Positions 5,579 through 35,733 of a DNA stretch of 40,502 bases are shown one piece after another. The DNA is from Spirochaetaceae bacterium (GTDB taxonomy: Bacteria > Spirochaetota > Spirochaetia > Treponematales > Breznakiellaceae): contig JAISDG010000140.1 in the NCBI GenBank assembly GCA_031265015.1, positions 1 through 40,502 of the forward strand. The letters run 5' to 3'. How positions within the stretch are numbered: the first letter of the stretch is position 1; the number at the start of each line of letters is the position of its first letter. The notes under the pieces are model-generated. The model did not search any database, was not told the origin of the DNA, and saw only the letters and a program-made list of their open reading frames with translations. The translations under genes and the position numbers were made by a program.

Positions 5579-6157
5579 TTGTCCGTGGAAATTGTTGTCC
5601 TGGGGCTGGGATCCAACCGGCCTTTTAACGGCCTTTCCCCGGCGGAGCTGCTTAATTCCGCTTTCGCGGAATTAAGCAGCCTGTTGGAGGACTGCCGCCT
5701 GTCCCCGGTGTATACGACGGCGCCGGTGGGAGTGACGGATCAGGCCGACTTTTGTAACGCCGCCGTGGCGGGCCGGTACGGGGGCAGTCCCCGGGAGCTG
5801 CTGGCCGCGGTTCAGGCCGTGGAAGCCGCCCGCGGCCGGGACCGCCAGCGGGAACGCCGCTGGGGGGAACGGTCCCTGGACATCGACATACTTCTTTTCG
5901 GGGACCGGCTTATCCGGGAAAAGGACCTTTCCGTTCCCCATCCCCGGCTCCGGGAACGGGCCTTTGCCCTCCGGCCCCTGCTGGATCTTATCCCCGCCGC
6001 CCGGGAACCGGGGACGGGAATAAGCTACCGGCGGATTCTTGAAGCCCTGCCGGATCAGGGGATTAAAGCGTACCGCCCCGAAACCGAACCTAAGCGCGGC
6101 GTCCAAATTCCGCAAGCCGGTGATATACGCCGGTCATTGAATCATAGGCCTGATTGA
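5579..6157 (+). CDS. folK: 2-amino-4-hydroxy-6-hydroxymethyldihydropteridine pyrophosphokinase (HPPK)
   Basis: HPPK hallmarks are present: GLGSN..P...L, SPVYTTAPVG..Q.DF.NA, RWGERSLDIDILLFG, L.VPHPRL.ERAF.L.PL. The start is uncertain (TTG 5579 or GTG 5585). Confidence 0.85.
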   Translation: MSVEIVVLGLGSNRPFNGLSPAELLNSAFAELSSLLEDCRLSPVYTTAPVGVTDQADFCNAAVAGRYGGSPRELLAAVQAVEAARGRDRQRERRWGERSLDIDILLFGDRLIREKDLSVPHPRLRERAFALRPLLDLIPAAREPGTGISYRRILEALPDQGIKAYRPETEPKRGVQIPQAGDIRRSLNHRPD

Positions 6158-7628
6158 AAATTCCGAAAAGTTCTTCGTATACCGGCGCCAGTTCGCCGCG
6201 GGGTGAAATTGTTTTAACCGGTCCGTTAAACTGACGTATCACCGAAAAATCCCTAAAGGCGCCGATGCCGACGCCGCCGCAAACCGCCGCGCCAAGGCTT
6301 GTCGCTTCTTCGGTATAGGCAGGGACCACGAGGGGTTTTTGCCATATATCGGCGAGAATTTGCAGCCATACCGTACCCTTGGCCCCGCCGCCAATCATAA
6401 TGATCCCGCCTGTACCGTTCCCGCGATCTTCAAGAATTTCCAGGATGATTCTCAGATTAAAACCGACTCCCTCAAGCACCGCCCGTGAAATATCACTCTT
6501 GCCGGTGGTGATCGAGAGCCCGACAAAGGCGCCCCTGGCCTCATGGTTCCAGCGGGGGGAACGTTCCCCCAAAAGATAGGGAAGGTAGAGCAGCCCTCCG
6601 GCGCCGGGCGGCGACTTTAACGCCCCTTCGTCAATAATGCGGTAGGGATCTTCACCGTCCCTGGCGGCTTCCGCGATTTCATCGCCGCAGAGGGTGTTTT
6701 TGTACCAATTATAGGAATACCCCGCAGCCTGCATAGTCCCGCAGGGCGTATACAGCGCGGGATCGAGGTGGACCCAGGTAAAGGTCCGCATCCGCGGATC
6801 ATATAAGGGGGCCGTACTTGCCAGCGAAATCCAGGAAGAAGAACCAAGTACATTGTAGGCGGCGCCTTCCGCCACCACCCCGGCGCCCACACAGGCGCAG
6901 CTTCCATCGCCGCCGCCGATAATAACGGGAGTTCCCTGAAGGAGCCCGATTTCCCCCGCCGCTTCCAGGGTAATGCCTCCGGCGTTATACGTCGAAGGAT
7001 ACGGATCGGGAAGCAGGTCCGGCGGAATACTCAGGGCATCCAGACTGTTTTTATCCCAGGTTTTTTTCACCAGATCAAACAGATTCGTCCCCGATGCGTC
7101 ACTGTAATCGGTAACAAATTTTCCTGTGAGCTTGAAAATGATATAATCCTTGGCGTGAAGCATCTTATAGGCCCGTTTGTATATTTCGCCCTCATTATCC
7201 CGGACCCATAAAAGTTTTGCCGCGGAATAGGAAGCGCTGATCCGGTGTCCCGTGGTCCGGTATATATAATCCATCCCCAGCTTTTCTTTCATTTCCGCTT
7301 CCTGCGCGCCCGCGCGGGTATCCGCCCAAATGATCATCGGACGTAGCGGCCTGCCTTCGCCGTCAACCAGCAGGCAGCCCATCATCTGGCCGCTGAAACA
7401 AACCGCGGCAATATCGCCGGGAGATACAGACGCCTTTTCAAGAAGCTGACGGGTAGAAAGGCATACCGCCTTCCAGAAATCATTGGGATCCTGTTCTACC
7501 CATCCTGGTTTTGGGTAATACGCCGGATATTCATATAAAACACCGGCGCCCAATTTCCCTTCCAGAGAGAAAAGAGCCGCCTTGTTGCCGCTGGTGCCAA
7601 GATCATGAGCTAATATATATTTCGCCAT
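6090..7628 (-). CDS. FGGY-family carbohydrate kinase (xylulokinase-like)
   Basis: 512 aa. N-terminal LAHDLGTSGNKA, an FGGY C-terminal domain (GGGAKG..W.QI.ADI), and SD AGGAGG before the ATG. GC content is intermediate between the island and the flanks. Confidence 0.9.
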   Translation of the reverse strand: MAKYILAHDLGTSGNKAALFSLEGKLGAGVLYEYPAYYPKPGWVEQDPNDFWKAVCLSTRQLLEKASVSPGDIAAVCFSGQMMGCLLVDGEGRPLRPMIIWADTRAGAQEAEMKEKLGMDYIYRTTGHRISASYSAAKLLWVRDNEGEIYKRAYKMLHAKDYIIFKLTGKFVTDYSDASGTNLFDLVKKTWDKNSLDALSIPPDLLPDPYPSTYNAGGITLEAAGEIGLLQGTPVIIGGGDGSCACVGAGVVAEGAAYNVLGSSSWISLASTAPLYDPRMRTFTWVHLDPALYTPCGTMQAAGYSYNWYKNTLCGDEIAEAARDGEDPYRIIDEGALKSPPGAGGLLYLPYLLGERSPRWNHEARGAFVGLSITTGKSDISRAVLEGVGFNLRIILEILEDRGNGTGGIIMIGGGAKGTVWLQILADIWQKPLVVPAYTEEATSLGAAVCGGVGIGAFRDFSVIRQFNGPVKTISPRGELAPVYEELFGIFNQAYDSMTGVYHRLAEFGRRA

Positions 7629-7670: not shown

Positions 7671-8567
7671 TTAAATCACATTTTTTACATTGTTTTGCGT
7701 TAAAATACTTTTAAAATAAGATATATATTCGGCGGATGGAACCGGAAAAATATTTTTGTCAGGATTTTGGTATAACGCTGTATATTTACTGATTCCAAAA
7801 TCATGGTACGGCATAATCTCTACCCTAACCGGCTCATATTTGCTTAAGAACAGGGCTATCTTTTTAAATTCGTCTTCCGTGTCGTTATAGTCTGGTATTA
7901 ACGGTATTCTAACCCATATTTTACCGGGAATGTTTTCTAACAGGCCGCATATATTTTGTAAAATTATCTTATTATCCATACCGGTGCCTTTTATATGCAA
8001 TTCAGCGCTCATGGCTTTCAAATCGCAAATCCAAACATCAACGCTGCCTATCAGCTCTTCAATATCATTCCATGCCGCCATCATTGATGTTTCCAGTGCA
8101 ACATTTATATTTTCCAATTTACATTGTTTTACTATTTCCCGCAGTTCGGATATTTGTACAAAAGGTTCTCCTCCCGTAAAGGTAACTCCACCTCCGGTTT
8201 CTTCATAAAATATTCTATCTCTTATTATTCTTCGTATTAATTCTTCGGGATCGATATCATACCCTGCTAATTCAAATGCCTTTTGCGCACAGACTTTGAC
8301 GCAAAGACCGCATAGGGTACAATTGCCCCTGTCAAATATATGCATCTCTTCTTTCATAGTATTCGCGTCTGCGTTACAAACAGTTGCGCATCTTCCGCAT
8401 CCGCAGCATTTTTCGCTGTAATAAAAAAGTTGTACATCTTTTACGGATGATTCTGGATTATGGCACCACAAACAGCGCAGGGGGCATCCTTTTAAAAAGA
8501 TACTTGTTCTTATGCCGGGTCCGTCATGGATACTAAATCTTTGTATGTCAAAAAGGCGAATCCTCAA
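7671..8567 (-). CDS. Glycyl-radical enzyme activating enzyme (radical SAM)
   Basis: 298 aa. N-terminus FSIHDGPGIRT, radical-SAM cluster CPLRCLWCHN, and two ferredoxin-type motifs (CCGCGRCATVC and CTLCGLCVKVC). The TTG start overlaps the GRE stop codon (TTGA). Confidence 0.9.
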   Translation of the reverse strand: MRIRLFDIQRFSIHDGPGIRTSIFLKGCPLRCLWCHNPESSVKDVQLFYYSEKCCGCGRCATVCNADANTMKEEMHIFDRGNCTLCGLCVKVCAQKAFELAGYDIDPEELIRRIIRDRIFYEETGGGVTFTGGEPFVQISELREIVKQCKLENINVALETSMMAAWNDIEELIGSVDVWICDLKAMSAELHIKGTGMDNKIILQNICGLLENIPGKIWVRIPLIPDYNDTEDEFKKIALFLSKYEPVRVEIMPYHDFGISKYTALYQNPDKNIFPVPSAEYISYFKSILTQNNVKNVI

Positions 8568-10852
8568 TGGGCGATTTCCTTTTCAAACCTGTCTATCATG
8601 TCTCTTTGAACTTCTTTTAGCATATCGGTAAAATAAATGCTGAAACCTCCTTTTCGTACAATAACATTGGGGTGTTCCTCCGGATGCTCATAAGCCTGCC
8701 GTAATAATTCAACATTAACACTATTTACCTGAACCTGCATACCTCCCAGCTTAAAATATGATTTCAATAAACCCCTGAATTTTGCTTTATCCTCCCCGTT
8801 TTTCAATATGGCTTTTGAGACATAGATATCAATGGGAACGCCGCCGCTGAATCTAAACTGCGGAAGCTTCGATGCCGCCAGGATAAGATCTGTCGGGGAG
8901 GTTTTTATAACCTGAATTACCGCTCCGGCATTTTTCCCGAAGGGTTCGCCGTCTCTCCTTGAATCCAGCGAGGCATACACGCAATTTCCAAACTGTACAT
9001 TTGCATCGATAGTATGACAAGTAGGAAGAAAGCGAATATTTCCCCTATAGCACAATTCGGAAGCATCGGCAAGGGTATTTAAAACAAACGCGGCGTTTTC
9101 GTCCGCGGCATCGCTTCCGTCCGCATATTTAGGGCATTTTTGCAGTTCCGTATAAATTTCTACGGCTTTACCGGTTTTGCAGTAATTTCCCGCCGCCGCC
9201 GTCTTGATTTCCTCAAGGGTATATTTTCTTTTTTTAAACACCAATTCATCAATTGCGCTTATGGAATCCGCGGCATTCGCGAACCCCATGGATAAAACAG
9301 TTACATTGTGGTATTTTGCGCCGCGTCCCATCCTTATCATCTCAAAATCATACATCTTGTCGGGATTTAAATCCTCCGCGCTTTTCCCCAGCATATGTAC
9401 GGCCGAATAAGCCCTATCCCGCCCAAATTCAATACACCCGTCAAGAAAAATCGATAAAAAAGGATTAGGCCTGTTTAAAGCAACCCATGATGCCTTTAGC
9501 AGATTTTGATGGGCTACATATTCTGTTATTCCTTTAATATACTCCGCATACAAATCTTTGATTACCTTTATAGAATCGGGCTCTTTTGGTTTAACATGCG
9601 CTATAAATTTTCTGCATGACTCCGGCAATTCACCCCTTAAAGGAAACCCTTCATTCACCGCAAGCTCGAGGGGCAGGCTCATATTTACGCAGCATCCCCA
9701 CATATCCGCCAATTCTTTCCCAACAATAATATTTCCCATGCAGCTGTTTACCGAATAGTCATCGTTTTCGGACATTCCGCGATATGCCATCGCATGAAGG
9801 CACGCCTCCTCATTGTAGAACGTTGGCTGTCCAATTTCAAATAGATCTTGTCCGATAAAAGTATCGTATACGCTGTCTGCGGCGGTTTTCTTCATCCTTG
9901 CCGCTATGATGGGAGAACGCAGCTTGATTTGCTTCTCAACCCTTATCAGTAATTCAGAGAATTGATTCCACTCAGGACCAATATTCATTGCACAAGAACC
10001 ATCCCCGTATGAGTCCAGCATTTTAAAAAATGCTTTCAAAAGTTCAACCGCTTCTGCTTCTGTATTACCATCGTTAAGCCATCGCTCAAAATACGGATAA
10101 AGGTATTTGTCTATTCTTCCAAGCGAAACAGATGCCCAGGAACGCTCAGAAGCCGGTGTTATGGTGTGAATGATCCACATTGACTGCAGGGCTTCAAAAA
10201 AAGTATCGGCTGGTTTATATGGTACTTTTTCCAAAGCGCCGATTATACGAGTAAGTTCTTTTCTGCGTTTATCAGAATCACAGTTTTTTAATTTCTCTTC
10301 CGCCAATTGCACATATCTACGGGTAAAGATGCCGGCCGTATTAATACTTTCCAGCATCGCGTGCGCATATTTTCTGCCGTAATCATCAATATCCTTTTCC
10401 AGTCTTTTTTTTATCTTACCCGCATAATATTCCAGTCCTCTGGTCAGAATTGTTTCATAATCAACACAGGTATGTGACGGGGTGTAAATACCGAAAAGCA
10501 TATACGTCCCGCTGATTATTCGTTCTTCTTCATTCCAAACTTTATATTCCCCGCTTTCGCTATATTCATCGGAATCCGCTTGCCGTATTTGTTCCAGCAA
10601 ATCATTCTCCGCAAATTGAACTCCATAATTTCCAGCCAGGAGATCGCCGTCATTTAATCCTATCGGCAGTATTTCAAGAGCTCTTCTTAAAATTAGCATT
10701 TCCCGCTCAGAACTTACAAGCGTATCCTTTGATCCCGAATTCTTTATTTGTTTTCGGGCCAGGTTTGTAGTCATCCCTTTGGGGGGATAGGTTATGGACT
10801 TCATAAACGCTTCTAAATCGAAAGTTTTCAAATTCCAATCTGCATTTTTCAT
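8564..10852 (-). CDS. Glycyl-radical enzyme (PFL-like fold), divergent or orphan subclass
   Basis: 762 aa. GRE landmarks include EALQSMWIIH and GQPTFYNEE. The Cys loop is DDYSVNSCMGNIIVGKE. The C-terminal Gly-radical segment is HPNVIVRKGGFSIYFTDML. A perfect SD (GGAGGTGAATA) precedes the ATG. Confidence 0.9.
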   Translation of the reverse strand: MKNADWNLKTFDLEAFMKSITYPPKGMTTNLARKQIKNSGSKDTLVSSEREMLILRRALEILPIGLNDGDLLAGNYGVQFAENDLLEQIRQADSDEYSESGEYKVWNEEERIISGTYMLFGIYTPSHTCVDYETILTRGLEYYAGKIKKRLEKDIDDYGRKYAHAMLESINTAGIFTRRYVQLAEEKLKNCDSDKRRKELTRIIGALEKVPYKPADTFFEALQSMWIIHTITPASERSWASVSLGRIDKYLYPYFERWLNDGNTEAEAVELLKAFFKMLDSYGDGSCAMNIGPEWNQFSELLIRVEKQIKLRSPIIAARMKKTAADSVYDTFIGQDLFEIGQPTFYNEEACLHAMAYRGMSENDDYSVNSCMGNIIVGKELADMWGCCVNMSLPLELAVNEGFPLRGELPESCRKFIAHVKPKEPDSIKVIKDLYAEYIKGITEYVAHQNLLKASWVALNRPNPFLSIFLDGCIEFGRDRAYSAVHMLGKSAEDLNPDKMYDFEMIRMGRGAKYHNVTVLSMGFANAADSISAIDELVFKKRKYTLEEIKTAAAGNYCKTGKAVEIYTELQKCPKYADGSDAADENAAFVLNTLADASELCYRGNIRFLPTCHTIDANVQFGNCVYASLDSRRDGEPFGKNAGAVIQVIKTSPTDLILAASKLPQFRFSGGVPIDIYVSKAILKNGEDKAKFRGLLKSYFKLGGMQVQVNSVNVELLRQAYEHPEEHPNVIVRKGGFSIYFTDMLKEVQRDMIDRFEKEIAH

Positions 10853-10875
10853 TATTCACCTCCGGAATAAAAGAT

Positions 10876-10907
10876 ATAACCAGCCCATAAGGTTATGAGC
10901 TGGTTAT
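10876..10907 (-). terminator. 32-bp near-perfect palindrome between the binding-protein gene and the GRE gene (attenuator or mRNA-stabilising hairpin)
   Basis: ATAACCAGCCCATAA-GG-TTATGAGCTGGTTAT has 15-nt arms with one mismatch. On the minus strand it is followed by ATCTTTTATT and then the GRE SD. Confidence 0.45.
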
Positions 10908-10923
10908 AGTACAACCGCTTATT

Positions 10924-11931
10924 TTACAAACCGTATTCCGATTTTACTTTTTCAATTGTCTCCCGCTGGAGTTTCTGTTGTTGCTCAAGATACTCTTCAA
11001 CATTCTCTGTGGAAACAATGCTCATTGCCAGTTCAATATCTTCGGCAGGAGGATTTTGGCCTCTGGCAATCATTACCGCTACCGCAATAGCCCTGACCCC
11101 TATCTCATAGGGTATTTGATTTGCGGTAAAATGCATTTCCCCTTTGCTTATCGCTTCAACAGCGTCAGGGGATGCGTCAAATCCGCCTACGATGACAGTA
11201 CCGACCTTGCCGGCGGAACGCAGGGCCTCAATTGCGCCCAGTGCCATCTCATCGTTTGCGGCCCAAACCGCGTCAATATCAGGGTTAGCCTGCAATATGG
11301 TTTCCATAACCGAAACAGCCTGAGCTCTTTCAAGATTTGCCACTTGTTCCGAGACGATTTCGATATCGGAATAAACGCTAATTGCGCTTCGAAAACCATT
11401 CTCCCTGTTCTGGATAACATCCCTGCCGGGCGTTCCAAGAATCATGGCTACTTTCCCTTTTCCATTCAGCCGTTTTCCCAAATAGTCACCGCAAAGATTT
11501 CCGCCTTGAACGTTATCTGCCGTTATGGACACGTTTACTTTGGTTGAAACCCTTGTTCCCGACATCACAACCGGAATACCTTTAGACATAGCTTCGTCAA
11601 TTGCCGTATTAATCCCGTCGGTACTGGTCGGATCTATCGAAATGACGTCAGGATTTGTAGCAATCAGGTTTTCAATTCTTCCAATTTGAGTCCCCGGATC
11701 CCAAGCGTTTGATTCGGGATTCGTTACCTGGTTAATTTCAGCATCAAGTTCCTTGGCCATATCTTTAGAACCGTTGGCAAAAAGAACATACCAGGGATTA
11801 TTGAGCGTGGGCATACTTTGGGCAATGGTTAAAACAGCATTGCCTTCATCCCCGGCGCCTCTTGAACAGCCTGCTACCGCCAGTGAACAAATCAGCGCGT
11901 ACAAAAATAAAATTCCGAATAGCCTTTTCAC
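10924..11931 (-). CDS. Sugar ABC transporter substrate-binding lipoprotein (RbsB-like, type I PBP)
   Basis: It has an RbsB-like periplasmic binding fold. The signal peptide carries a lipobox: LICSLAVAGC. I prefer GTG 11931 (VKRLFGILF..), which has GGAGG 6 nt upstream, over the track start at 11985. Confidence 0.85.
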   Translation of the reverse strand: MKRLFGILFLYALICSLAVAGCSRGAGDEGNAVLTIAQSMPTLNNPWYVLFANGSKDMAKELDAEINQVTNPESNAWDPGTQIGRIENLIATNPDVISIDPTSTDGINTAIDEAMSKGIPVVMSGTRVSTKVNVSITADNVQGGNLCGDYLGKRLNGKGKVAMILGTPGRDVIQNRENGFRSAISVYSDIEIVSEQVANLERAQAVSVMETILQANPDIDAVWAANDEMALGAIEALRSAGKVGTVIVGGFDASPDAVEAISKGEMHFTANQIPYEIGVRAIAVAVMIARGQNPPAEDIELAMSIVSTENVEEYLEQQQKLQRETIEKVKSEYGL

Positions 11932-12017
11932 AATTTTCCTCCTTGGAAAAAAATACAGAAATTCGTCTTTAAAAACAGGAATCATTCATTGTTTCCGGTG
12001 ATCACCTCCTTATCTTA

Positions 12018-12968
12018 TTATTTATTCTTTTTGCGCTTATCAAGAAAAACAGCAATTAAAATTACACATCCAACGATTAATCCCTGAAGATAAGGATTGA
12101 CATTCAATAATACAAGGCCGTTATTTAAAACGGTGATAACCAAAGCCCCCATCAACGTTCCGAATATCCCTCCTTCACCGCCGGTCAGGCTTGTCCCGCC
12201 AATAACAACTGCCGCTATGATGTCAAGTTCTATTCCGCTTGCCGCGCCCGGCTGTCCGGAATTCATTCTTGCGGTAAGTACTATGCCCGCAACCGCGGTC
12301 AAAATCCCATGTACCACATATGTTATTATTTTCCACATGTTTACATTGATACCCGAAAGTACAGCGGCGTTTTCATTTCCGCCTATCGCGTATATATATC
12401 TTCCAAAAATGGATTTCTTTAAAACAAATAGGCCAAACAGCACAACCAATACGGCAATGAGTACCGGCACGGGAACAGGTCCTACCGAACCTGTTCCAAT
12501 AAATGAATAAATTTTGGGTATTCCCGTAATAGGATAACCGCCGCTGTACATCAGGGCGAGACTTCTCGAAATGGTGAGCATGGCCATAGTCGCTATAAAT
12601 GCGGGTATTTTCCCGTAGGTTACTAAAAGCCCGGACACTAAGCCTGTTAAAGTACCGATCAAAAGACCTATACTTACCGCTATACCTACCGTCATGCCTT
12701 CTCTCATAAATCCCGCGATAAGGGTTCCCACCAAAGCCATGACTCCGCCGACTGAAAGATCGATGCCTCCGGTTAAAACTATGAAAGTCATGCCCGTTGC
12801 TAATATCAGATTAATGGAACATTGCCTTGCAATATTTATAAGATTATAAACACTCATAAAATGTTCGGTCAGGATGGTGAAAATGACGCATAAAATAACT
12901 AATCCTCCCAATGCGCCGTTTATACTTACTTGCTTCTTAAGATGCCGCAAAGGCTTATTCACAATCAC
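12018..12968 (-). CDS. Sugar ABC transporter permease (RbsC/XylH-like)
   Basis: 316 aa, polytopic and hydrophobic, with the typical CUT2 permease pattern (GGIDLSVG, GG.S..GG.G). Confidence 0.9.
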   Translation of the reverse strand: MIVNKPLRHLKKQVSINGALGGLVILCVIFTILTEHFMSVYNLINIARQCSINLILATGMTFIVLTGGIDLSVGGVMALVGTLIAGFMREGMTVGIAVSIGLLIGTLTGLVSGLLVTYGKIPAFIATMAMLTISRSLALMYSGGYPITGIPKIYSFIGTGSVGPVPVPVLIAVLVVLFGLFVLKKSIFGRYIYAIGGNENAAVLSGINVNMWKIITYVVHGILTAVAGIVLTARMNSGQPGAASGIELDIIAAVVIGGTSLTGGEGGIFGTLMGALVITVLNNGLVLLNVNPYLQGLIVGCVILIAVFLDKRKKNK

Positions 12969-12977
12969 CCTCCGTAT

Positions 12978-14471
12978 TCAAAATGCCAGCTTCATAATTG
13001 CGTGTTCTTCCAGTTCGTGTCTTTGGAGTTCACCGGCCAGTTCCCCCCTGCGCATTACGATAACCCTGTCGCTCATGCCGATAATTTCAGGTAAATCCGA
13101 GGAAATCATAATTATCGCAGCTCCGGATTTTGCCAACTCGGAGATGATTTTGTATATTTCCGCTTTAGCCCCGACATCTACGCCCCGGGTAGGTTCATCA
13201 AATATAAGCACCTGGTGATTTTTATATATCCATTTGCCGATAACTACCTTTTGCTGATTTCCACCGCTCAGATTTCTGGTCTTAACGTTTAGCCGGTCCG
13301 GTTTTATAGCAAGTTTATGTATTATTTCGTTACCGTTGCCGGCAGTCTTCCTGTTAGAAACAAGCAAAAAATAGCTCATCATATCCAGATAGGGCAGGGA
13401 AATATTATTTTCAATATCCAGGGAAAGGATCAATCCCTCCGATTTACGTTCTTCAGGGATCATGACTATTCCCAGTTTTTTTGCTTTTATGGGAGAATCA
13501 ATTATCACGTGTTTATTGTTTAGGTAAATTTTCCCGGCGCTAATTCTGTTTATTCCTATAATAGCCCTTGCCAATTCCGTTCTCCCGGATCCTACCAGCC
13601 CGCTTATTCCCAGTATTTCACCTTTTTTTACTTCAAAGCTGATATTCCTGATTATCTTATCACAGGAAAGTGAATCCACGCGCAGTATTGTCTCATTTAT
13701 GGTTTTCGCAACGGATGGAAATTGTTCAACAAGATCGCGGCCTATCATCATTCTTGTTATTGCATCTTTGGCAAATTCCTTGGTTTTTAGTTCCCCAACC
13801 ATCTTTCCATCGCGCAATATGCTTACCCGATCGGCAATATGAGGCAGTTCTTCCAATCTGTGGGAAATATAAATTATAGCTAATCCTTCCTTTTTTAGAC
13901 CCATAATTACTTCAAAGAATTTGTTAATTTCCTTAGCGGATAAGACCGCCGTAGGCTCGTCCATTACTACAATTCTGGAATTAACCGATAGTGCCTTGCA
14001 GATTTCAACCAGTTGTTTTTCGGCCACCCCTAAATTTTTTACCCGTTCTTTTACATCAAAATTTGAATCAACCCGCTGTAAAAGCCCGCGCGTTTGTTCA
14101 TATATATTTTTATTGCGGATCAAGCCCGCGGTTATTTTTTCCCGTCCCAAAAAAACATTCGCCGCAACATCCAGGTTATCAACTAAATTAAATTCCTGGT
14201 GGATCGTGCTTATGCCCGCAAAAATAGCATCTTTTGGACTCTTGAATTTGACCGCTTTGCCTTCAAAGGTTATTTGTCCGGCGTCCGCTTGGTATATCCC
14301 CGCCAGAATTTTGATTAATGTTGATTTACCCGCCCCATTTTCTCCGACCAGAGCGTGAAGTTCACCGCGGTTCAAATTAAAATCAACATCAAACAACACT
14401 TGGGTGCCTGAAAATTGCTTGCGGATTCCTTTCATTTCCAATAAATCAGTCATACGCCACCAAATTGTCAC
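12978..14471 (-). CDS. Sugar ABC transporter ATP-binding protein (duplicated ATPase, RbsA/MglA-like)
   Basis: 497 aa with two ABC cassettes: Walker A GENGAGKST, signature LSGGNQQKV, Walker B LIFDEPT. The start is either GTG 14471 or ATG 14453. Confidence 0.9.
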   Translation of the reverse strand: MTIWWRMTDLLEMKGIRKQFSGTQVLFDVDFNLNRGELHALVGENGAGKSTLIKILAGIYQADAGQITFEGKAVKFKSPKDAIFAGISTIHQEFNLVDNLDVAANVFLGREKITAGLIRNKNIYEQTRGLLQRVDSNFDVKERVKNLGVAEKQLVEICKALSVNSRIVVMDEPTAVLSAKEINKFFEVIMGLKKEGLAIIYISHRLEELPHIADRVSILRDGKMVGELKTKEFAKDAITRMMIGRDLVEQFPSVAKTINETILRVDSLSCDKIIRNISFEVKKGEILGISGLVGSGRTELARAIIGINRISAGKIYLNNKHVIIDSPIKAKKLGIVMIPEERKSEGLILSLDIENNISLPYLDMMSYFLLVSNRKTAGNGNEIIHKLAIKPDRLNVKTRNLSGGNQQKVVIGKWIYKNHQVLIFDEPTRGVDVGAKAEIYKIISELAKSGAAIIMISSDLPEIIGMSDRVIVMRRGELAGELQRHELEEHAIMKLAF

Positions 14472-14499: not shown

Positions 14500-14528
14500 A
14501 CAATATGTCATATAAGATTATTTGTCAA
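14500..14528 (-). promoter_or_regulatory. Candidate sigma70-type promoter of the ABC-GRE operon
   Basis: The minus strand reads TTGACA (14528-14523), a 17-nt spacer, then TATTGT (14505-14500). An 11-bp palindrome ATATGNCATAT (14503-14513) overlaps the spacer and the -10. Confidence 0.35.
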
Positions 14529-14545
14529 GTATTTTTTTTATTTTT

Positions 14546-15517
14546 TTAGCTTTTAATCCTGGTGTTATGGGCGGCGAATGCCCCGGCGGGATTTTTCACA
14601 AAAAAATCTTCTATCCGCTTCGGATCAATTCCCCGATCCCGCATGAGGGGGATGAATTTTTCGATAATGTAGGCCAGTCCGGGAACACCGCCGTAGCTTC
14701 CCAGCCTGGCCCGGGTAGTATCCAGGGACATGAGCAACCGATCCCCGTAACCCGCTTCCAGAAGCCCCATAACAAGGGAAAGTTCCTTTTCGTCGTCGTG
14801 GTATCCGGGCCGGCCGATAGTATCATATTCCAGCCAGCTCCCCCGGCGGCAGAGTTCCCGGTGGACCGCGGGATCGGGGACCGCCCGGTCCGGGTGGCAA
14901 TAGATGACCCGGTTTGCGGGGACTCCGGTTTTTTCAAGAAAATCCGCCGGTTCCAGCGGGTTGGAACCTTTTTCGACGTGAACCATCAGGGGCCGGCCGG
15001 TTTTCAAGGCGGCTCTGGCCGCGGCGCCAAAGAGGGTACGGTACCGGGGGATCAGCCCCTCCGTATCCAGGGCTGTCTTGATCTGGCCCGCCCTGGCGGA
15101 ACCCTGTTTTTTGGGAAAAGCCCCGCCGCCGTCCAGGTACATTCCCCGTGTCAGTTCTTCGATAAAAAGCTCCGCCAGGACGTCTTCGCCGGCGGAATGG
15201 ATCCAGTGATCGGCGGGGTAATACGAAAGCTTGTGAAAACCGGTAGAGGCGATGATGTGAAGGGAACTTTGTTCAGCCAGGCTTATCAGGACCGCGGCGC
15301 TTCTGCCGCAGCCAAGGGGCTGGGCGTCTACCAGCGCCCGGCCCCCCACGCGGCGGTACACCAACAGTTCCGCAAGGCTTTTGCCGGGATCGTCGATGAG
15401 CTGCTCCGCCGGAACGGAATGGGCAAAGCTGATGTAGAGGTGCTCATGGCTCTGGCAGAACCCCAGGGAATCGGGGGAAATATCTCCCAAAACCGTGGTA
15501 ATAAGCCCCTTTTTCAT
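14546..15517 (-). CDS. Phosphotriesterase-related protein (PTE/Php family amidohydrolase, possible lactonase)
   Basis: 323 aa. N-terminal G.C.SHEHL metal-binding HxH motif and a PTE-family TIM-barrel pattern. GC-rich, unlike the adjacent cassette. Confidence 0.85.
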   Translation of the reverse strand: MKKGLITTVLGDISPDSLGFCQSHEHLYISFAHSVPAEQLIDDPGKSLAELLVYRRVGGRALVDAQPLGCGRSAAVLISLAEQSSLHIIASTGFHKLSYYPADHWIHSAGEDVLAELFIEELTRGMYLDGGGAFPKKQGSARAGQIKTALDTEGLIPRYRTLFGAAARAALKTGRPLMVHVEKGSNPLEPADFLEKTGVPANRVIYCHPDRAVPDPAVHRELCRRGSWLEYDTIGRPGYHDDEKELSLVMGLLEAGYGDRLLMSLDTTRARLGSYGGVPGLAYIIEKFIPLMRDRGIDPKRIEDFFVKNPAGAFAAHNTRIKS

Positions 15518-15521
15518 GGGG

Positions 15522-16472
15522 TTAACATACCAGGCAGGGGCATTTTTTGCCCGAGAGCACGCCTGCGAGGTTCCGTACCGACATAAGGGCCATGGCGGCG
15601 GTGGCTTCGGCGGTATGGGACGCCGTATGGGGGGTCAATACCACATTGTCCAGGGCAAAGAGGGGGGACGCCCGGGGCGGCTCCGCCTCGAATACGTCCA
15701 GCCCCAATCCTCCCAGATAGCCGGATTGGAGCAGTTCACAGGCGGCGTCTTCGTCTATCAATCCGCCCCTGGCGGTGTTGACGATAACGGCTCCCCTTTT
15801 CATGGACCTCATCACCTCCGCGGAAATGATATGCCTGGTTTCACCGGTCAAGGGAAGGTGGAGGCAAAGAAAATCCGCTTCTTGTATGACGGTGTCAAAA
15901 GCGGCGGGGATGATCCCATTGGCTTGGGCGTAGTCTTCGTCCAGACAGGGATCGTAAGCCATGATCCGCATGGAAAAACCCGATCCCCTTTTGGCCACCG
16001 CCCGGCCCACGGCCCCAAGCCCCAGAATGCCGAGGGTTTTGCCGTAGAGTTCCACCCCGGTTGAGCGGGGCCACCGGCCGTTCCGGGTATCCCGGTCCAG
16101 CCGGGGAATCCGCCGGGCGGCGCAGAGGAGGAGGGCCACGGTCAGATCCGCCACCGCCTGGGCGTTGGCCCCGGGGGTATTGCAGACCCGGATACCCCGT
16201 TTTTTTGCCGCTTCCAGATCAATCCGGTCGAAACCGGCGCCGTACCGGGAAATTACCTTTAAATCCGGGGCGTTTTCCAGTACCCTGGCGGTAAAATGAT
16301 CCAGCCCCGCGATACAGCCTTCACAGCCCGGGAGAAGGGAAATAAGCTCATCCTCCGTCAGGGGCCTGTCCCGGGGGTTGAAAACCAGCGTGTCCGCGAA
16401 GGAACGAAGCTCCTCCATGGCGGGACCCCCGGTATCACCCTTAAACGACGTGGCGGTCACCAGAATTTTCAT
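15522..16472 (-). CDS. D-isomer-specific 2-hydroxyacid dehydrogenase (PGDH/GyaR-like)
   Basis: NAD-binding site GILGLGAVGRAVA and catalytic-region motifs (..R..VNTARG.., TPHTASHT). I prefer ATG 16472 (MKILVTA), which is preceded by AGGGGG. The stop lies 4 nt before the PTE start. Confidence 0.85.
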   Translation of the reverse strand: MKILVTATSFKGDTGGPAMEELRSFADTLVFNPRDRPLTEDELISLLPGCEGCIAGLDHFTARVLENAPDLKVISRYGAGFDRIDLEAAKKRGIRVCNTPGANAQAVADLTVALLLCAARRIPRLDRDTRNGRWPRSTGVELYGKTLGILGLGAVGRAVAKRGSGFSMRIMAYDPCLDEDYAQANGIIPAAFDTVIQEADFLCLHLPLTGETRHIISAEVMRSMKRGAVIVNTARGGLIDEDAACELLQSGYLGGLGLDVFEAEPPRASPLFALDNVVLTPHTASHTAEATAAMALMSVRNLAGVLSGKKCPCLVC

Positions 16473-16503
16473 AAAACCCCCTAAAATCATTATATGTCAT
16501 TAC

Positions 16504-16620: not shown

Positions 16621-17550
16621 ATGGTGAATCTTGAGGCAGCTAAGGAGCCGGCTTTTTATTTTATCGGGGTAACGACCGGCCAGTCTTCCATAATGAAGGT
16701 ATTTCCCAGGTGGGCGGACGCCCTGGGGCTGGGGGCGGTTATAAAGGGAATCGATCTTCCCCCCCACGCTCCGGCGGAAGATTACCGGAGGGTGATTGGG
16801 TTCCTTAAGAACGATCCCCTGTCGCTGGGGGCGCTGGTAACGACCCACAAGCTGGACCTCTATTCCTCCTGCAGGGATATGTTTGACTACGTGGATCCTT
16901 ACGCCCAAAAGCTTTCGGAAGTGTCGTCCCTGTCCAAAAAGGACGGAGCCTTCCGCGCCCACGCCAAAGATCCCATCTCCAGCGGCCTTGCCCTGGAATC
17001 CTTTGTGGCCCCCCGGTTTTGGGAGGACCACGGCGGCGAGGTCCTCCTGCTGGGGGCCGGCGGAAGTTCCCTGGCCATGTCCCTGTATTTTTCCCGGAAG
17101 GAAGCGGCGGGGAACAAGCCCCGGCGCATTACCATCGCCAACCGGAGCGAACCCCGGCTTGCCTCCGCAAAAGCCGCCCTGGCGGACTGCTGTGGAGAGA
17201 TCGAATTCCGGTTTTTACATTGCCCCACCCCCGCCGGTAACGACGCCCTGGTGGCGGCGCTGCCCCCCTGGTCCCTGGTGGTCAACGCCACCGGCCTGGG
17301 GAAAGACGCCCCCGGTTCTCCCACCACCGGCGCCGTTTCGTATCCCCCCAATTCCCTGGTCTGGGAGATCAATTACCGGGGGGACCTGATCTTTATGCAG
17401 CAGGCCCAGGCCCAGGCCGGGGAAAAAAAACTCCTGGTTGAAGACGGCTGGAATTACTTTATCTTCGGCTGGACCCAGGTTATTGCCGAGGTGTTTCATA
17501 TCGACATAAGCCCCCGGCAGCTTGCGGAACTAAGCAGGATCGCCCGGTAG
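16621..17550 (+). CDS. Shikimate/quinate dehydrogenase-like protein (AroE superfamily, atypical)
   Basis: The N-terminal substrate domain has GVTTGQSSIMKVFP where AroE has G.IG.PI.HS.SP. The Rossmann motif is LLLGAGGSSLAM, and NATGLG follows later. The ATG 16621 start is preferred. Confidence 0.7.
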   Translation: MVNLEAAKEPAFYFIGVTTGQSSIMKVFPRWADALGLGAVIKGIDLPPHAPAEDYRRVIGFLKNDPLSLGALVTTHKLDLYSSCRDMFDYVDPYAQKLSEVSSLSKKDGAFRAHAKDPISSGLALESFVAPRFWEDHGGEVLLLGAGGSSLAMSLYFSRKEAAGNKPRRITIANRSEPRLASAKAALADCCGEIEFRFLHCPTPAGNDALVAALPPWSLVVNATGLGKDAPGSPTTGAVSYPPNSLVWEINYRGDLIFMQQAQAQAGEKKLLVEDGWNYFIFGWTQVIAEVFHIDISPRQLAELSRIAR

Positions 17551-17572: not shown

Positions 17573-18160
17573 GTGGCTGATTTTAACTGGCAGAAGGGAT
17601 TTATCGTTGACTTTGCGCTGACGGGGGGGCTGTCCTCCGCCGTTGTTTCCACCAAACGGAAACTGTCCCAAATGCGGGGCATTTTCTCCGACCCGGACGC
17701 CTTTGAAAAGGCCGCTGCCGCGGGGGACCCGGTGGTATATGAATTTTACGAACTGGGGGCTCCGGAAAACGCCGGGGATGTGGCCTTCGGTACTTCCGTT
17801 ACCTATCCGGGAAAGGTAGGGGCTGAATACTTTATGACCAAAGGGCACTTCCATCTGGTTCTGGAAACCGCGGAAGTGTACTATACCCTTTCGGGCGAGG
17901 GGGGGATGCTGGTGGAAAACCCGGAGGGAGAAACGGATTTTTTCCCCATGACCCCCGGAAACGCGGTCTATGTACCAAAACGGTTTGCCCACCGGAGCGT
18001 CAATACCGGTACAGTTCCGCTGGTTTCCTTTTTTGCCTTCCGGGGAGACGCGGGACACAATTACGCTGAAATTGAAACCAGGGGGTACCGTAAGCTGGTG
18101 GTAGAAGGGATGGACGGCAGACCCGGAATTATAGATAATCCCAGGTGGGGGACAGAATGA
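17573..18160 (+). CDS. Cupin-type glucose-6-phosphate isomerase homolog (cPGI family)
   Basis: The motif PGKVGAEYFMTKGHFHLVLETAEVYY fits P-x3-G-x-E-x3-T-x-G-H-x-H-x6-E-x-Y. VPKRFAHRSVN fits P(P)x3Hx3N. GTG start with AGGAGG 5 nt upstream. Confidence 0.75.
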   Translation: MADFNWQKGFIVDFALTGGLSSAVVSTKRKLSQMRGIFSDPDAFEKAAAAGDPVVYEFYELGAPENAGDVAFGTSVTYPGKVGAEYFMTKGHFHLVLETAEVYYTLSGEGGMLVENPEGETDFFPMTPGNAVYVPKRFAHRSVNTGTVPLVSFFAFRGDAGHNYAEIETRGYRKLVVEGMDGRPGIIDNPRWGTE

Positions 18161-18795
18161 CGGTTAAGGAACGGCTGGGTTCGACCCGGCTTATACCGGT
18201 GGTTGTCATGGACGACGCGGAGCGGGCGGTCGATACCGCCGGGGCATTGCTGTCAGGCGGTATCGATGTAATGGAAATAACCCTGCGTACCGAAGCGGGG
18301 CCGGCGTCAATCGAAAAGGCAATTAAAGCCTATCCCAACATTCTGGCGGGCGCGGGTACCGTGTTTTCCCTGGAAAAATGCAGGGAAGCGGTTTCCCGGG
18401 GGGCGGCCTTTATCGTATCCCCCGGTTATGATCCCGAAATTGTGGAATTTTGCCTTAAAAACAAAGTAGCGGTATTCCCCGGCTGCGTTACTCCCACGGA
18501 AATTACCGGGGCCCTCAAGGCGGGGCTCGATATCCTTAAATTTTTCCCCGCCGATGTGTACGGCGGCGTCAAGGCCATTAAGGCCCTTTCAGGACCCTTC
18601 CCCATGATCAAATTTATTCCCACCGGCGGGGTGAATCTGTCCAACCTGGCGGATTTTCTGGTTCCCCAGGTCTTTGCCGTGGGGGGCGGCTGGCTCTGTG
18701 ACCGCAGGGCGGTTAACGCGGGAAACTACGGCGAAATTACCAGGATCTGCGCGCAATCGGTAGAGCTTGTTAAAAAAGCCCAAACGCCGGCATAA
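18157..18795 (+). CDS. eda: KDPG/KHG-type aldolase (Eda family)
   Basis: Shows the Eda pattern: LIPVVV.D, GI.VMEITLRT, GAGTV, FIVSPG, PG..TPTE, KFFPA. ATG 18157 overlaps the stop of the upstream gene (ATGA). Confidence 0.85.
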   Translation: MTVKERLGSTRLIPVVVMDDAERAVDTAGALLSGGIDVMEITLRTEAGPASIEKAIKAYPNILAGAGTVFSLEKCREAVSRGAAFIVSPGYDPEIVEFCLKNKVAVFPGCVTPTEITGALKAGLDILKFFPADVYGGVKAIKALSGPFPMIKFIPTGGVNLSNLADFLVPQVFAVGGGWLCDRRAVNAGNYGEITRICAQSVELVKKAQTPA

Positions 18796-18803
18796 GGGCA
18801 GCA

Positions 18804-19556
18804 ATGTCACAGCGGGTTCTGGATACCATCAAACTTGATAAAAATATTCCGATCCCCCTGTATTACCAGCTGAAAAAACAGCTTCTCTCGCTGATCCAGG
18901 ATGCCAGCATAGGGGAGGGTGAGCTGCTCCCCCCGGAGTTTGAACTCTGCGAGCGGCTCAATGTTTCCCGCCCGACTATACGGCAGGCGTTCAGCGAACT
19001 GGTCAACGAAGGGTACCTGACCCGCCACAAGGGAAAGGGTACCTTTGTTTCCAAACCCAAGGTGATGGACCAGTTTTTTAGCAAACTGGAAACCTTCCAC
19101 GACGAAATGGCGGGAAAGGGTTTTAATCCCGCCACCGTGGTCCTGAAGCTGGAGAAGATCCGGGGGCCCCGTGAGGCGAACGAAAAGCTGTCTATCCCCC
19201 TGGACGCTCCGCTCATCTATTTAAGCAGGGTCCGGTCGGTTAATTCGGTACCCCTGGTCTATCTGGAAACCTTTCTGCCCTATGAAACCTGCGGTAAACT
19301 GATGCTGGTGGATTTTAAGGTCAATTCCCTCTACGATTCCCTGGAAAAGATCCACGGCCTGCGGATAAACAGGGTCCGGCGCGAATTTATGGCGGTAAAC
19401 GCCCGTCAAAAAGAGGCGGAACTGCTGCAAATCGCCAGGAATAAGGCGATAAGCCTGGTTAAGACCGTCGCCTATTCGGCGGATACCCCGGTGGAATTTT
19501 CCATTGCCCGCTACCGGGGAGACATAAACCAGTTCAGCGTGGAACTGGCCAGGTAG
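18804..19556 (+). CDS. GntR-family transcriptional regulator (HutC-like, UTRA effector domain)
   Basis: 250 aa. N-terminal winged HTH (PLYYQLKKQL..LPPEFELCERLNVSRPTIRQAFSELVNEGYL.R.KGKGTFV) with a UTRA-like C-terminal half. It lies 8 nt after eda. Confidence 0.9.
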   Translation: MSQRVLDTIKLDKNIPIPLYYQLKKQLLSLIQDASIGEGELLPPEFELCERLNVSRPTIRQAFSELVNEGYLTRHKGKGTFVSKPKVMDQFFSKLETFHDEMAGKGFNPATVVLKLEKIRGPREANEKLSIPLDAPLIYLSRVRSVNSVPLVYLETFLPYETCGKLMLVDFKVNSLYDSLEKIHGLRINRVRREFMAVNARQKEAELLQIARNKAISLVKTVAYSADTPVEFSIARYRGDINQFSVELAR

Positions 19557-24168: not shown

Positions 24169-25140
24169 ATGCCGTCAAAGATTGACGCCAAAGAATACCA
24201 TACCCTGATAGCAAAAAGTCCCCTTATTCTGGAAAAGCTTGAAATTATCGACCGGGTTGCCCAGACCGATTCGTCGGTCCTGATTCTGGGGGAAAGCGGG
24301 GTCGGCAAGGAACTTTTTGCGGAGCAGATACATCTGCGCAGCCCCCGGAGCGGCGCCCCCTTTATTCGGGTTAACTGCGCCGCCCTGCCGGAGGGCCTGC
24401 TGGAAAGCGAGCTTTTCGGCCATGTTAAAGGGGCTTTTACCAATGCCATACAGAATCGCCGGGGCCGCTTTGAACTGGCGGATACGGGTACCATTTTTCT
24501 TGACGAAATAGGGGATCTGTCCCTGGCCCTGCAGTCAAAACTGCTCCGGGTAATCCAGCAGAAAACTTTTGAAAAAGTCGGTTCCAACACGCCGGTCACC
24601 GTGGACGTGAGGATTTTAGCGGCCACCAACAAGGATATAGAAGCCCTGGTGGAAAAGGGGGAGTTCCGCAGCGATCTCTACTACCGGATCAACGTGTTCC
24701 CCATCCATATCCCCCCCCTGCGGCAAAGGCCCGAAGATATCCCCGAATTGGCCGGTTTTTTTATGAAAAAATACCAAACGGAAACCAAAAAGCAGTTTAC
24801 CGGATTTTCAAACGATGCTATGGAATTTATGCTCTCCTATTCCTGGCCGGGAAACATCCGGGAACTGCAAAACAGCGTGGAACGGGCCTGCGTCATCGGC
24901 AAGGGTCCCCGGATACAAAAGGACGATTTATTTTTCAGGACCGCCCCGGTTATTCCCGAACCGGCGGAAGGAAGCCGTAACTTGAAAAACGCGATAAATG
25001 CCTTTAAAATACAATTTATCCAGAAGGTACTGGAAGAAAACAAATGGAACCAGACGGAAACGGCAAAAGCCCTGGATATTCAGAGAACCTATCTGTCCAG
25101 GCTGATTAAAGAATTTTCCATTAAAGGTGAGGAGCATTGA
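24169..25140 (+). CDS. Sigma54-interaction-domain (AAA+) transcriptional activator with no N-terminal sensory domain
   Basis: 323 aa. Walker A GESGVGKE, GAFTNA in place of GAFTGA, Walker B IFLDEIG, then RSDLYYR, PLRQRPEDI and WPGNIRELQN. C-terminal Fis-type HTH ETAKALDIQRTYLSRLIK. Only about 30 residues precede the AAA+ core. Confidence 0.85.
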   Translation: MPSKIDAKEYHTLIAKSPLILEKLEIIDRVAQTDSSVLILGESGVGKELFAEQIHLRSPRSGAPFIRVNCAALPEGLLESELFGHVKGAFTNAIQNRRGRFELADTGTIFLDEIGDLSLALQSKLLRVIQQKTFEKVGSNTPVTVDVRILAATNKDIEALVEKGEFRSDLYYRINVFPIHIPPLRQRPEDIPELAGFFMKKYQTETKKQFTGFSNDAMEFMLSYSWPGNIRELQNSVERACVIGKGPRIQKDDLFFRTAPVIPEPAEGSRNLKNAINAFKIQFIQKVLEENKWNQTETAKALDIQRTYLSRLIKEFSIKGEEH

Positions 25141-35627: not shown

Positions 35628-35733
35628 CCTGTTTGAGATTTAATACTGTTTATGATAAAAAGTCAATAAAGCCGCTCCGGCCCGTATACCCGCGCGGGCC
35701 GATGTTCCGCGGGAGCGTGTTACAGGGTAAAAA

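Follow-up and report, generated by a model that had tools for sequence, protein, structure and literature searches.

What reaction is carried out by a glycyl radical enzyme (GRE) whose active-site Cys loop follows the motif of no characterized class, and what does its genomic neighborhood say about the substrate? We address this question for a 762-amino-acid GRE encoded at positions 8,564–10,852 (minus strand) of a 40,502-nucleotide stretch from a Spirochaetaceae bacterium (GenBank assembly GCA_031265015.1, contig JAISDG010000140.1), referred to here at its full length as the window. In gut anaerobes, GREs catalyze several reactions that bear on health, among them trimethylamine, p-cresol, skatole and H2S precursor formation and hydroxyproline use, and a 2026 review of the superfamily notes that whole clades are still without any function. 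An earlier note on the window had proposed that this protein represents an uncharacterized catalytic subclass. We find that it belongs to a clade marked by the Cys-loop motif N-S-C-M-G, which we call the NSCMG clade, and that its neighbors suggest a GRE producing deoxy-sugars from imported carbohydrate in gut anaerobes.

An apparently competent GRE with a new Cys loop

The open reading frame (ORF) at 8,564–10,852 apparently encodes a bona fide GRE, predicted to be catalytically competent. Its ATG follows a Shine-Dalgarno sequence (GGAGGTG, 5-nt spacing), and Pfam recognizes the PFL-like (2.2e-69) and Gly_radical (1.2e-14) domains, together with a partial match of residues 213–376 to the YjjI family (PF11230). 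An AlphaFold2 model computed from the family alignment reached a pLDDT of 92 and a pTM of 0.92. When searched with Foldseek against the Protein Data Bank (PDB), it returned GREs exclusively: about 45 solved GRE chains at template modeling (TM) scores of 0.78–0.83, among them CutC, glycerol dehydratase (GDH), propanediol dehydratase (PD), YbiW, HplG and HypD at 18–22% identity. Several features that define the superfamily (IPR004184) are present: a predicted ten-stranded beta/alpha barrel with central Cys and Gly finger loops, an invariant catalytic Cys (C371) and C-terminal radical Gly (G736), and a cognate radical SAM activase in the adjoining gene (7,671–8,567, minus strand). The activase start codon overlaps the GRE stop codon, an arrangement by which the two genes are predicted to be translationally coupled. 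The activase carries the CPLRCLWC (CX3CX2C) motif and two ferredoxin-like Cys-rich motifs, and passes TIGR02494 (317.8 bits versus a cut-off of 174). The earlier note had taken a size like that of pyruvate formate-lyase (PFL) and a non-PFL activase as pointers to class; the activase type is borne out by the ferredoxin motifs and the model score, but the size is uninformative.

Translation and codon readout agree on the two loops that the note had described. Alignments, the AlphaFold2 model and the codon readout place the Cys loop, N369-S370-C371-M372-G373, at 9,734–9,748 and the Gly loop, R733-K734-G735-G736-F737-S738, at 8,639–8,656 (both minus strand). Beta-hairpins at 366–369/373–376 and 731–734/737–740 in the model put C371 and G735–G736 at the finger-loop tips. 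We mapped the active site from sequence and profile alignments, Foldseek giving summary scores. A phmmer search against all PDB sequences set C371 on Cys433 of GDH (I-G-C-V-E), G373 on Glu435, and R733-K-G-G736-F on R-V-A-G-Y, with G736 on the radical Gly. A 38-member family profile gave the identical register against CutC, an Archaeoglobus GRE, PD, GDH and HypD (1e-104 to 1e-116), so that both G736 and C371 fall on catalytic residues in GDH, PD, CutC and HypD; they are the predicted glycyl and thiyl radical sites, respectively. The note had also asked whether C387/C388 or a nearby Glu might take over the Cys loop, and none does so in the alignments or the model. C387/C388 was rejected as an alternative catalytic pair, being unconserved; distant members read GIKFN there.

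The Gly loop departs from convention less than it first seems. Against the fingerprint used in the field, RVxG[FWY]x6-8[FL]x4Qx2[IV]x2R, the protein reads R-K-G-G-F-SIYFTD-M-LKEV-Q-RD-M-ID-R, which retains R, G, F, Q and R and misses the strict pattern through V->K734, [FL]->M744 and [IV]->M752. The statement that three fingerprint positions differ with the radical Gly kept was right about the Gly but overstated the departure: only V->K734 is non-conservative, M744 and M752 are conservative, and G735 occupies a free x position. Across the clade, the loop reads RKGGFS in 45 members, RKGGYS in 24, RIGGYS in 13, RIAGYS in five and R[VCRL]GG in a few, and position 734 may be K, I, V, R, L or C. 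On this count, K734 is a marker of close orthologs and no clade-wide requirement. G735 is replaced by Ala in some members and G736 is unchanged. Aminoacyl-radical enzymes (AAREs) have a residue other than Gly at the radical position; here G736 is invariant.

The Cys loop, more than the Gly loop, is the real novelty that the alignments reveal. According to the review (June 2026), six C-O eliminases, CutC, three C-S lyases and three isomerases all keep the motif C-x-E, whose Glu is hydrogen-bonded to substrate in the characterized eliminases and isomerases and is essential in CutC and IslA; a loop Glu is likewise used by HPAD and IAD. The same review finds the C-C loop unique to PFL/TdcE, both PFL cysteines being essential. 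In the GRE of the window, the first of these motifs is replaced by C371-M372-G373 and the second by S370-C371. The earlier reading of Gly at the C-x-E Glu therefore stands, G373 being aligned on GDH Glu435, as does its argument that Ser in place of the first PFL Cys speaks against formate-lyase chemistry. The invariant S-C-M-G, set against the C-x-E/C-C rule of the review, puts this GRE outside every characterized class.

A clade sharply delimited by its motif

Among 5.8 billion proteins, a homolog search resolved three groups: about 44 close homologs of about 760 amino acids (49–91% identity), about 53 distant homologs of about 700 amino acids (32–41%) and, beyond the family, an abrupt fall to generic GREs at 27% identity or less. 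The NSCMG motif is present in 97 of 97 metagenomic homologs. The next 23 matches, outside the family, have a GC[VIS]E Cys loop, and those in which a Gly motif was detected read RV[AS]GY or, in one case, RIAGF. Scanning 185,579 species genomes yielded 78 loci, and the family members in these genomes show 31–62% identity. Of 80 full-length family ORFs (the window plus loci from public genomes and metagenomes), almost every one carries NSCMG; what deviates is a set of conservative [ST]SCMG variants and a single small S[ST]CMN subclade. G373 is invariant in the family alignment and in the 97 metagenomic homologs, with Asn appearing only in that subclade. Non-family GREs encoded in the same loci (25% identity or less) read GCVE, GCYE, GCNE, GCTE or STCVE.

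Invariant positions in the family alignment include H127, Y132, S241, S243, D284, N290, N369-G373, E380, M384-W385-G386, H613, K640-N641, R733, G736 and S738; in total, the radical Gly, the catalytic Cys and about 60 other positions are unchanged down to 31% identity. Such conservation across homologs means that the motifs are neither chance nor sequencing error, and the concern that the radical Gly might be lost in a proper alignment falls away.

The S[ST]CMN subclade is found at L047 6,436–8,649, L050 9,920–12,061, L063 1,159–3,297 and L077 8,070–10,211 (L numbers denote individual fetched loci). Its Gly loop is RIGGHS, with His after the radical Gly where the fingerprint demands F, W or Y.

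Carriers are nearly all metagenome-assembled genomes (MAGs) from Clostridia (Blautia, Lachnospiraceae, Oscillospiraceae, Ruminococcus), Lentisphaerota/Victivallales, Armatimonadota, Kiritimatiellota and Planctomycetota; the sole cultured carrier among the genome-scan loci is Ructibacterium gallinarum DSM 107454, whose enzyme (locus L040) is a distant member. Clostridia of gut and rumen host the clade, as do Lentisphaerota, Kiritimatiellota and Armatimonadota that degrade glycans, and it often occurs alongside other GRE types that are likewise unstudied.

Curated models place the protein in none of the known classes. Every NCBIfam model of a characterized GRE scored far below its cut-off, the best reported being TIGR01774, the model of the PFL2/glycerol dehydratase family (260.4 bits versus 678). 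The equivalogs for HypD, HpsG, HpfG, CutC and PflD gave 171–193 bits against cut-offs of 1000–1109 (HypD 193 versus 1100, CutC 171 versus 1050, PflD, PRK09983, 180 versus 1109), PFL (TIGR01255) gave 64.8 versus 994 and YjjI (TIGR04040) 49.4 versus 498. The decarboxylase models also failed (IAD 140 versus 1100, HPAD 98 versus 1150), no gene for a small Fe-S accessory subunit lies between the GRE and its neighbors in the window, and BSS and MASS are weak matches. PFL is absent from the top 50 Foldseek matches in the PDB. We therefore rejected membership of the PFL, YjjI, decarboxylase, XSS and AARE groups on motif and model scores. Nor is there orthology to a characterized GRE, which the note had named as a check: the best solved structures share 19–22% identity. 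A full-text literature search found no publication on the clade, and the AARE paper describes no carbohydrate context. Judged from sequence, the NSCMG clade is large, distinct and uncharacterized, and lies outside all seven classes of the 2026 review. The uncharacterized subclass originally proposed is thus supported by motif, model scores and literature, as a catalytic subclass that shows itself in sequence, in fold and in gene context.

A carbohydrate locus around the GRE

In the window, the GRE sits within a minus-strand operon. Its first gene encodes a D-isomer-specific 2-hydroxyacid dehydrogenase (15,522–16,490), identified, like the permease, the ATPase and the regulator below, by family models. 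It is followed by a PTE-family hydrolase (14,546–15,517; Pfam PTE 3e-41, best structure 3pnz) whose nearest relatives are phospho-furanose lactonases, although the NCBIfam model of that name gives 115 bits, below its cut-off. An overlapping plus-strand ORF (14,522–15,586) has no family matches and was discarded, the real gene being the hydrolase on the minus strand. Next come an RbsA/XylG-like ABC ATPase with two ATP-binding domains (12,978–14,471), an RbsC-like permease (12,018–12,968) and the solute-binding lipoprotein of a ribose-type (CUT2) importer (10,924–11,985; Peripla_BP_4 2e-62, best structure the ribose-binding protein 2ioy), which is 35% identical to Escherichia coli ribose-binding protein. 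After the GRE and activase, the operon ends with a carbohydrate kinase (6,090–7,628; Pfam FGGY_N/C). This FGGY kinase scores 378 bits against the XylB cut-off of 380 and 315 with the GntK model, and the structures closest to it are those of AI-2 kinase, gluconate kinase and xylulokinase.

Divergent from this operon, four plus-strand genes complete a 12-gene locus. The first (16,621–17,550) encodes a 309-amino-acid oxidoreductase that resembles shikimate dehydrogenase (AroE) distantly: it has no Pfam match, a faint shikimate-dehydrogenase signal (E of about 3e-6) and a GAGG Rossmann motif. The TTG start listed for it (16,576) is probably wrong, ATG at 16,621 being more likely. It is co-conserved with the GRE module, with a 64% identical copy in L011 (16,837–17,778), and by these signs it is an unannotated dehydrogenase family. 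The gene adjoins those for a cupin-type phosphoglucose isomerase (PGI) and a 2-keto-3-deoxy-6-phosphogluconate (KDPG) aldolase in both loci. In the window, these are a PGI homolog at 17,573–18,160 (Pfam GPI; 1j3p at 6.5e-54, full length) and a KDPG/KHG aldolase, Eda, at 18,145–18,795 (TIGR01182, 224.6 bits versus 156). A GntR/UTRA protein (18,804–19,556), the probable regulator of the locus, closes the set.

We clustered ORFs over 80 loci (the window and 79 fetched loci) and ran tblastn with the window neighbors against 83 fetched loci. The most recurrent neighbors are the activase (36 of 80 loci), IclR regulators (21), sugar ABC ATPases (14) and FGGY kinases (12), followed by DERA-family aldolases and AraC regulators (nine each), SMP-30-type lactonases (eight) and GH43 glycosidases, zinc alcohol dehydrogenases (Zn-ADHs) and short-chain dehydrogenases/reductases (SDRs) (six each). 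The DERA-family loci include those of the close orthologs L001 and L008. The same ABC transporter lies directly upstream of close GRE orthologs in L003, L005, L006, L007, L009 and L010, with binding proteins 54–70% identical to that of the window. An FGGY kinase directly follows the activase in L003 (62% identity), and in L011 (49%) an aldo-keto reductase (AKR) gene intervenes. L011, a Family XIII MAG, carries on one strand the GRE, activase, AKR, FGGY kinase, 2-hydroxyacid dehydrogenase, AroE-like protein, cupin PGI, Eda and PTE hydrolase. The survival of the same module in shuffled order and with a different transporter speaks for a functional link among its genes.

Distant members occupy another recurrent operon. 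In L036, L040, L042 and L044, the order is IclR, GRE, GH43, DERA, Zn-ADH, FGGY kinase, a lactonase-like protein, a second GRE and the activase, with GH43 and DERA exchanged in L040; L061 holds a partial form. Candidate polyol-making reductases recur near the GRE: L011 has the AKR, the operons of distant members have Zn-ADH, and L005 and L008 have SDRs.

Several further observations concern the GREs of these loci. In 44 of the 80 loci, mostly those of distant members, no activase lies within 10 kb of the GRE, and IclR is often directly upstream; the activase must in these cases be encoded elsewhere or shared. The second GRE of the distant-member loci is short (about 600–690 amino acids), with an apparent Cys-Cys pair in the sequence FT[YF]SACCTFD and the Gly loop R[LM]YGFS. 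It occurs at L036 9,382–11,430, L040 14,479–16,485, L042 16,849–18,909, L044 9,072–11,099, L038 12,896–14,902, L033 1,619–3,616 and L016 5,411–7,201, and in L036, L040, L042 and L044 it adjoins the only activase seen. Since the review limits the loop Cys pair to PFL/TdcE, this second enzyme may be an unrecognized formate-lyase-like type that partners the NSCMG enzyme. In L048 (a Victivallaceae MAG), and also in L052 and L057, up to about eight GRE-like ORFs, some possibly fragments, stand beside a single activase, with the Cys loops NSCMG, GCYE, GCQE, GCTE, STCVE and GCC. Such arrays suggest extensive GRE diversification in glycan-degrading bacteria.

A candidate radical dehydratase of sugar alcohols

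We tentatively favor, at slightly less than an even chance, a radical C-O eliminase whose substrate would be a sugar alcohol, or a related sugar, taken up from outside; phosphorylation by the FGGY kinase and aldol cleavage would come next. Several lines of evidence point this way. The nearest relatives of the GRE in both sequence and structure are eliminases and isomerases (CutC, GDH, PD, HypD, YbiW and HplG). The substrates of Eda and DERA, phosphorylated sugars which carry a CH2 beside the carbonyl, have the exact product pattern of a radical 1,2-dehydration of a vicinal diol, a reaction for which the glycerol and propanediol GREs are precedents, and so favor an eliminase, and the frequency of polyol-making reductases among the neighbors favors a sugar alcohol as what it acts on.

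The active site offers candidates for the acid and base that such chemistry would need. The invariant H127 (10,472–10,474, minus strand) aligns with GDH His164 and PD His166, and the equally invariant S241 with GDH Ser282, so that by alignment the protein has the general-acid His and substrate-binding Ser of the eliminases. In the review, GDH His164 is the proposed general acid that protonates the leaving hydroxyl. The retention of H127 and S241 while other positions have changed makes C-O cleavage plausible, the base then coming from another part of the barrel. As replacement base, H613 (9,014–9,016, minus strand), invariant and aligned with GDH Tyr640, is possibly the best candidate, and the invariant E380 may be another.

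From the conserved GRE architecture, we expect that the activase would install a radical on G736, to be relayed to C371. The operon suggests that a neutral monosaccharide-like compound, most likely a sugar alcohol, would arrive through the ribose-type ABC importer. The C371 thiyl radical would then take hydrogen from a carbinol carbon, and the neighboring C-O bond would be cleaved with acid help from H127, the hydroxyl-deprotonating role of the absent C-x-E Glu passing to another residue, possibly H613. The product would be a deoxy-carbonyl sugar for the FGGY kinase to phosphorylate and a deoxy-sugar-specific aldolase to cleave. By co-occurrence, this aldolase would be the KDPG aldolase in the window and L011 and a DERA-like enzyme in other loci.

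For the window, this idea can be extended to a complete route, from polyol to pyruvate and triose phosphate, in which each gene of the 12-gene locus is used once. The GRE would convert the polyol to a 3-deoxy-ketose, the FGGY kinase would phosphorylate it, and the cupin PGI would isomerize the phosphate to a 3-deoxy-aldose phosphate. The AroE-like dehydrogenase would oxidize this to a lactone phosphate, the PTE lactonase would open it to a 3-deoxy-aldonate phosphate, the 2-hydroxyacid dehydrogenase would yield a 2-keto-3-deoxy-aldonate phosphate (a KDPG-type keto acid) and Eda would split that into pyruvate and triose phosphate. In all its detail, this route is rather improbable. A 2-deoxy-aldose route was dropped for the window, such a compound being no PGI substrate and offering no path to a 2-keto-3-deoxy acid. 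Regiochemistry of this kind suits the DERA-containing loci alone.

Several considerations weigh against the eliminase reading. Gene context is compatible with the kinase acting before or after the GRE, and by our own bookkeeping a polyol route that ends in the KDPG branch brings no redox gain over ordinary hexitol catabolism. The binding protein keeps only six of 11 ribose contacts when set against the E. coli protein, and its ligand cannot be read from sequence. With Gly at the C-x-E Glu, the chemistry may differ in kind, and the roles given to H613 and E380 are guesses. Context is also heterogeneous, L004, L012, L013 and L030 having no sugar genes beside the GRE and activase. Within the library searched, no publication connects GREs to FGGY kinases, DERA or pentitols, which leaves the reading without experimental precedent.

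The alternatives have to be weighed against the same evidence. The protein could be an isomerase in the style of YbiW/PflD, opening the C-O bond of a cyclic ether or anhydro-sugar (an anhydro-alditol or 3,6-anhydro-aldonate, for example) without net loss of water, the deoxy-keto sugar then being phosphorylated and passed to an aldolase. YbiW and PflD are close structural neighbors (TM 0.78–0.83), their substrates are sugar derivatives and their products go to an aldolase, and a cyclic substrate would suit a ribose-type binding protein, whose ligand pocket is ring-shaped. Opening of a 3,6-anhydro-aldonate gives a 2-keto-3-deoxy-aldonate directly, which would suit the kinase and Eda. The known isomerases, however, retain C-x-E and place its Glu on the C2 hydroxyl of the substrate, a position at which the NSCMG GRE has Gly, and the PRK09983 score is far from its cut-off. 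The locus has no phosphotransferase system and no Fsa-type aldolase, and such an isomerase would leave the cupin PGI, the lactonase and two dehydrogenases unexplained, so we consider it unlikely. Cleavage of a C-C bond in a sugar-derived keto or sugar acid, as in formate lyases or decarboxylases, with the kinase and aldolases as parallel branches, could be argued from the PFL-like size, from Cys-loop flanks that resemble those of PFL (DDYSVNSC...IVGKE set by eye beside the PflB loop as given in the note, DDYAIACC...IVGKQ) and from the pairing with a Cys-Cys GRE in distant-member operons, where keto-acid chemistry may occur. Yet S370 stands where PFL has its acyl-carrying Cys418, one of two essential cysteines; PFL is distant in sequence (1e-17, C-terminal part only) as well as in structure, and its model is missed by a wide margin (65 bits versus 994). 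With no pta, adhE or acyl-CoA enzyme genes in the window locus, decarboxylase models that failed and accessory subunits absent, we judge C-C cleavage quite unlikely.

We are about as skeptical that the substrate is no carbohydrate at all but some other small hydroxylated metabolite, the neighborhood being fortuitous or co-regulated. Several orthologous loci do hold the GRE and activase among unrelated genes, and contexts are diverse across the clade. Against this, the arrangement of ABC transporter, GRE, activase and FGGY kinase, built of orthologous parts, recurs in seven or more independent genomes, L011 retains the larger module despite its shuffled order, and the recurrent neighbor families are nearly all carbohydrate-related. 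Finally, the departures from the canonical RVxG and C-x-E/C-C motifs might be read as loss of function in a degenerate paralog, which strikes us as very improbable for a protein with the invariance described above, an intact ORF with a Shine-Dalgarno site, a dedicated and translationally coupled activase and a fold predicted with high confidence.

If the eliminase reading is right, its broadest form would make the NSCMG clade a new GRE class: a radical dehydratase of sugars or polyols that has no need of the C-x-E Glu, using the H127/H613 pair or another base, and that opens a hitherto unrecognized anaerobic 'deoxy-sugar shunt' in which a polyol or sugar would become a deoxy-carbonyl sugar, pass to the FGGY kinase and end at DERA or KDPG aldolase. 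We advance this broader proposal as a speculative one and would not bet on it as it stands.

Outlook

That unannotated GRE clades exist is already familiar to specialists; what sets the NSCMG clade apart is a clean diagnostic motif. Sequence defines the clade sharply, it lacks the hallmark catalytic residues of each known class, and it occurs in carbohydrate loci of gut and rumen bacteria that are uncultured. Knowing its reaction would show how a GRE handles proton transfer without the C-x-E Glu, and might bring to light an anaerobic route, so far unseen, by which dietary sugar alcohols or other unusual sugars are used. With the activase, the binding protein and the downstream kinase all encoded in the operon, the reaction is directly testable biochemically, and the binding protein is an easy aerobic handle on the substrate of the pathway.

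Other features of the window

Downstream of the stop codon that ends the binding-protein gene, and ahead of the Shine-Dalgarno sequence for the GRE, lies a 15-bp perfect stem-loop with a T-run (10,875–10,908, minus strand; folding energy -23 kcal/mol), in which the stem-loop is followed by TCTTTTATT. In L003, L005 and L007, the orthologous binding-protein genes are also followed by hairpins, of like form and unlike sequence. The element is probably an intra-operon attenuator or a stabilizer of the binding-protein mRNA, with GRE expression depending on read-through. An Rfam scan at gathering thresholds found no known riboswitch in the locus. A good sigma-70-like site, TTGACA-17-TATTGT (14,500–14,528, minus strand), falls in the 74-nt gap between the PTE hydrolase and ABC ATPase genes and may be an internal promoter for the transporter–GRE part of the operon.

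The remainder of the window consists of housekeeping genes (recA, folK, scpA, S1, mreBC, PBP2, rodA, rpoD, dnaG). Its RNase P RNA (class A, 216 bits; 35,732–36,346, minus strand) spans 615 nt against a 367-position model, which implies about 250 nt of insertions. A 323-amino-acid sigma-54 activator homolog (24,169–25,140, plus strand) has AAA+ and HTH_8 domains and is without an N-terminal sensory or receiver domain.

Comparison with known systems

The closest comparison is with GDH and PD (1r8w, 5i2a). They share the ten-stranded barrel (TM about 0.8), are among the top profile matches of the GRE (1e-113 to 1e-115), align in catalytic Cys and radical Gly, have an activase with the ferredoxin insert and, if our reading holds, resemble it in acting on what is probably a polyol. 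In contrast, identity is 21–22% and the N-terminal region of the NSCMG GRE is shorter. In the active site, GDH Glu435 becomes Gly373, His281 Ala240 and Tyr640 His613, and the Asp of a conserved A/S-D-G segment becomes Lys640. No microcompartment context surrounds the NSCMG GRE, whose partners are instead an ABC importer, an FGGY kinase and aldolases.

YbiW and PflD (8id7, 8id0), isomerases of 1,5-anhydro-hexitol-6-phosphate and the only characterized GREs that act on sugar derivatives, are structural neighbors whose product, a deoxy-ketose phosphate, is likewise cut by an aldolase. They differ in keeping C-x-E (Glu443 and Glu433) where the NSCMG GRE has Gly, in receiving their substrate already phosphorylated and in sharing 20–22% identity with it. 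YjjI proteins, at about 500 amino acids, are far shorter than the 762 residues found here, and the activase is not of the YjjW type (162 bits versus 250). PFL and TdcE resemble the NSCMG GRE in length, in Cys-loop flanks as aligned by eye and in a radical Gly near the C-terminus. The match is nevertheless distant and limited to the C-terminal third, and the NSCMG GRE differs from them in having no Cys-Cys pair, an activase of another class and no CoA or formate context.

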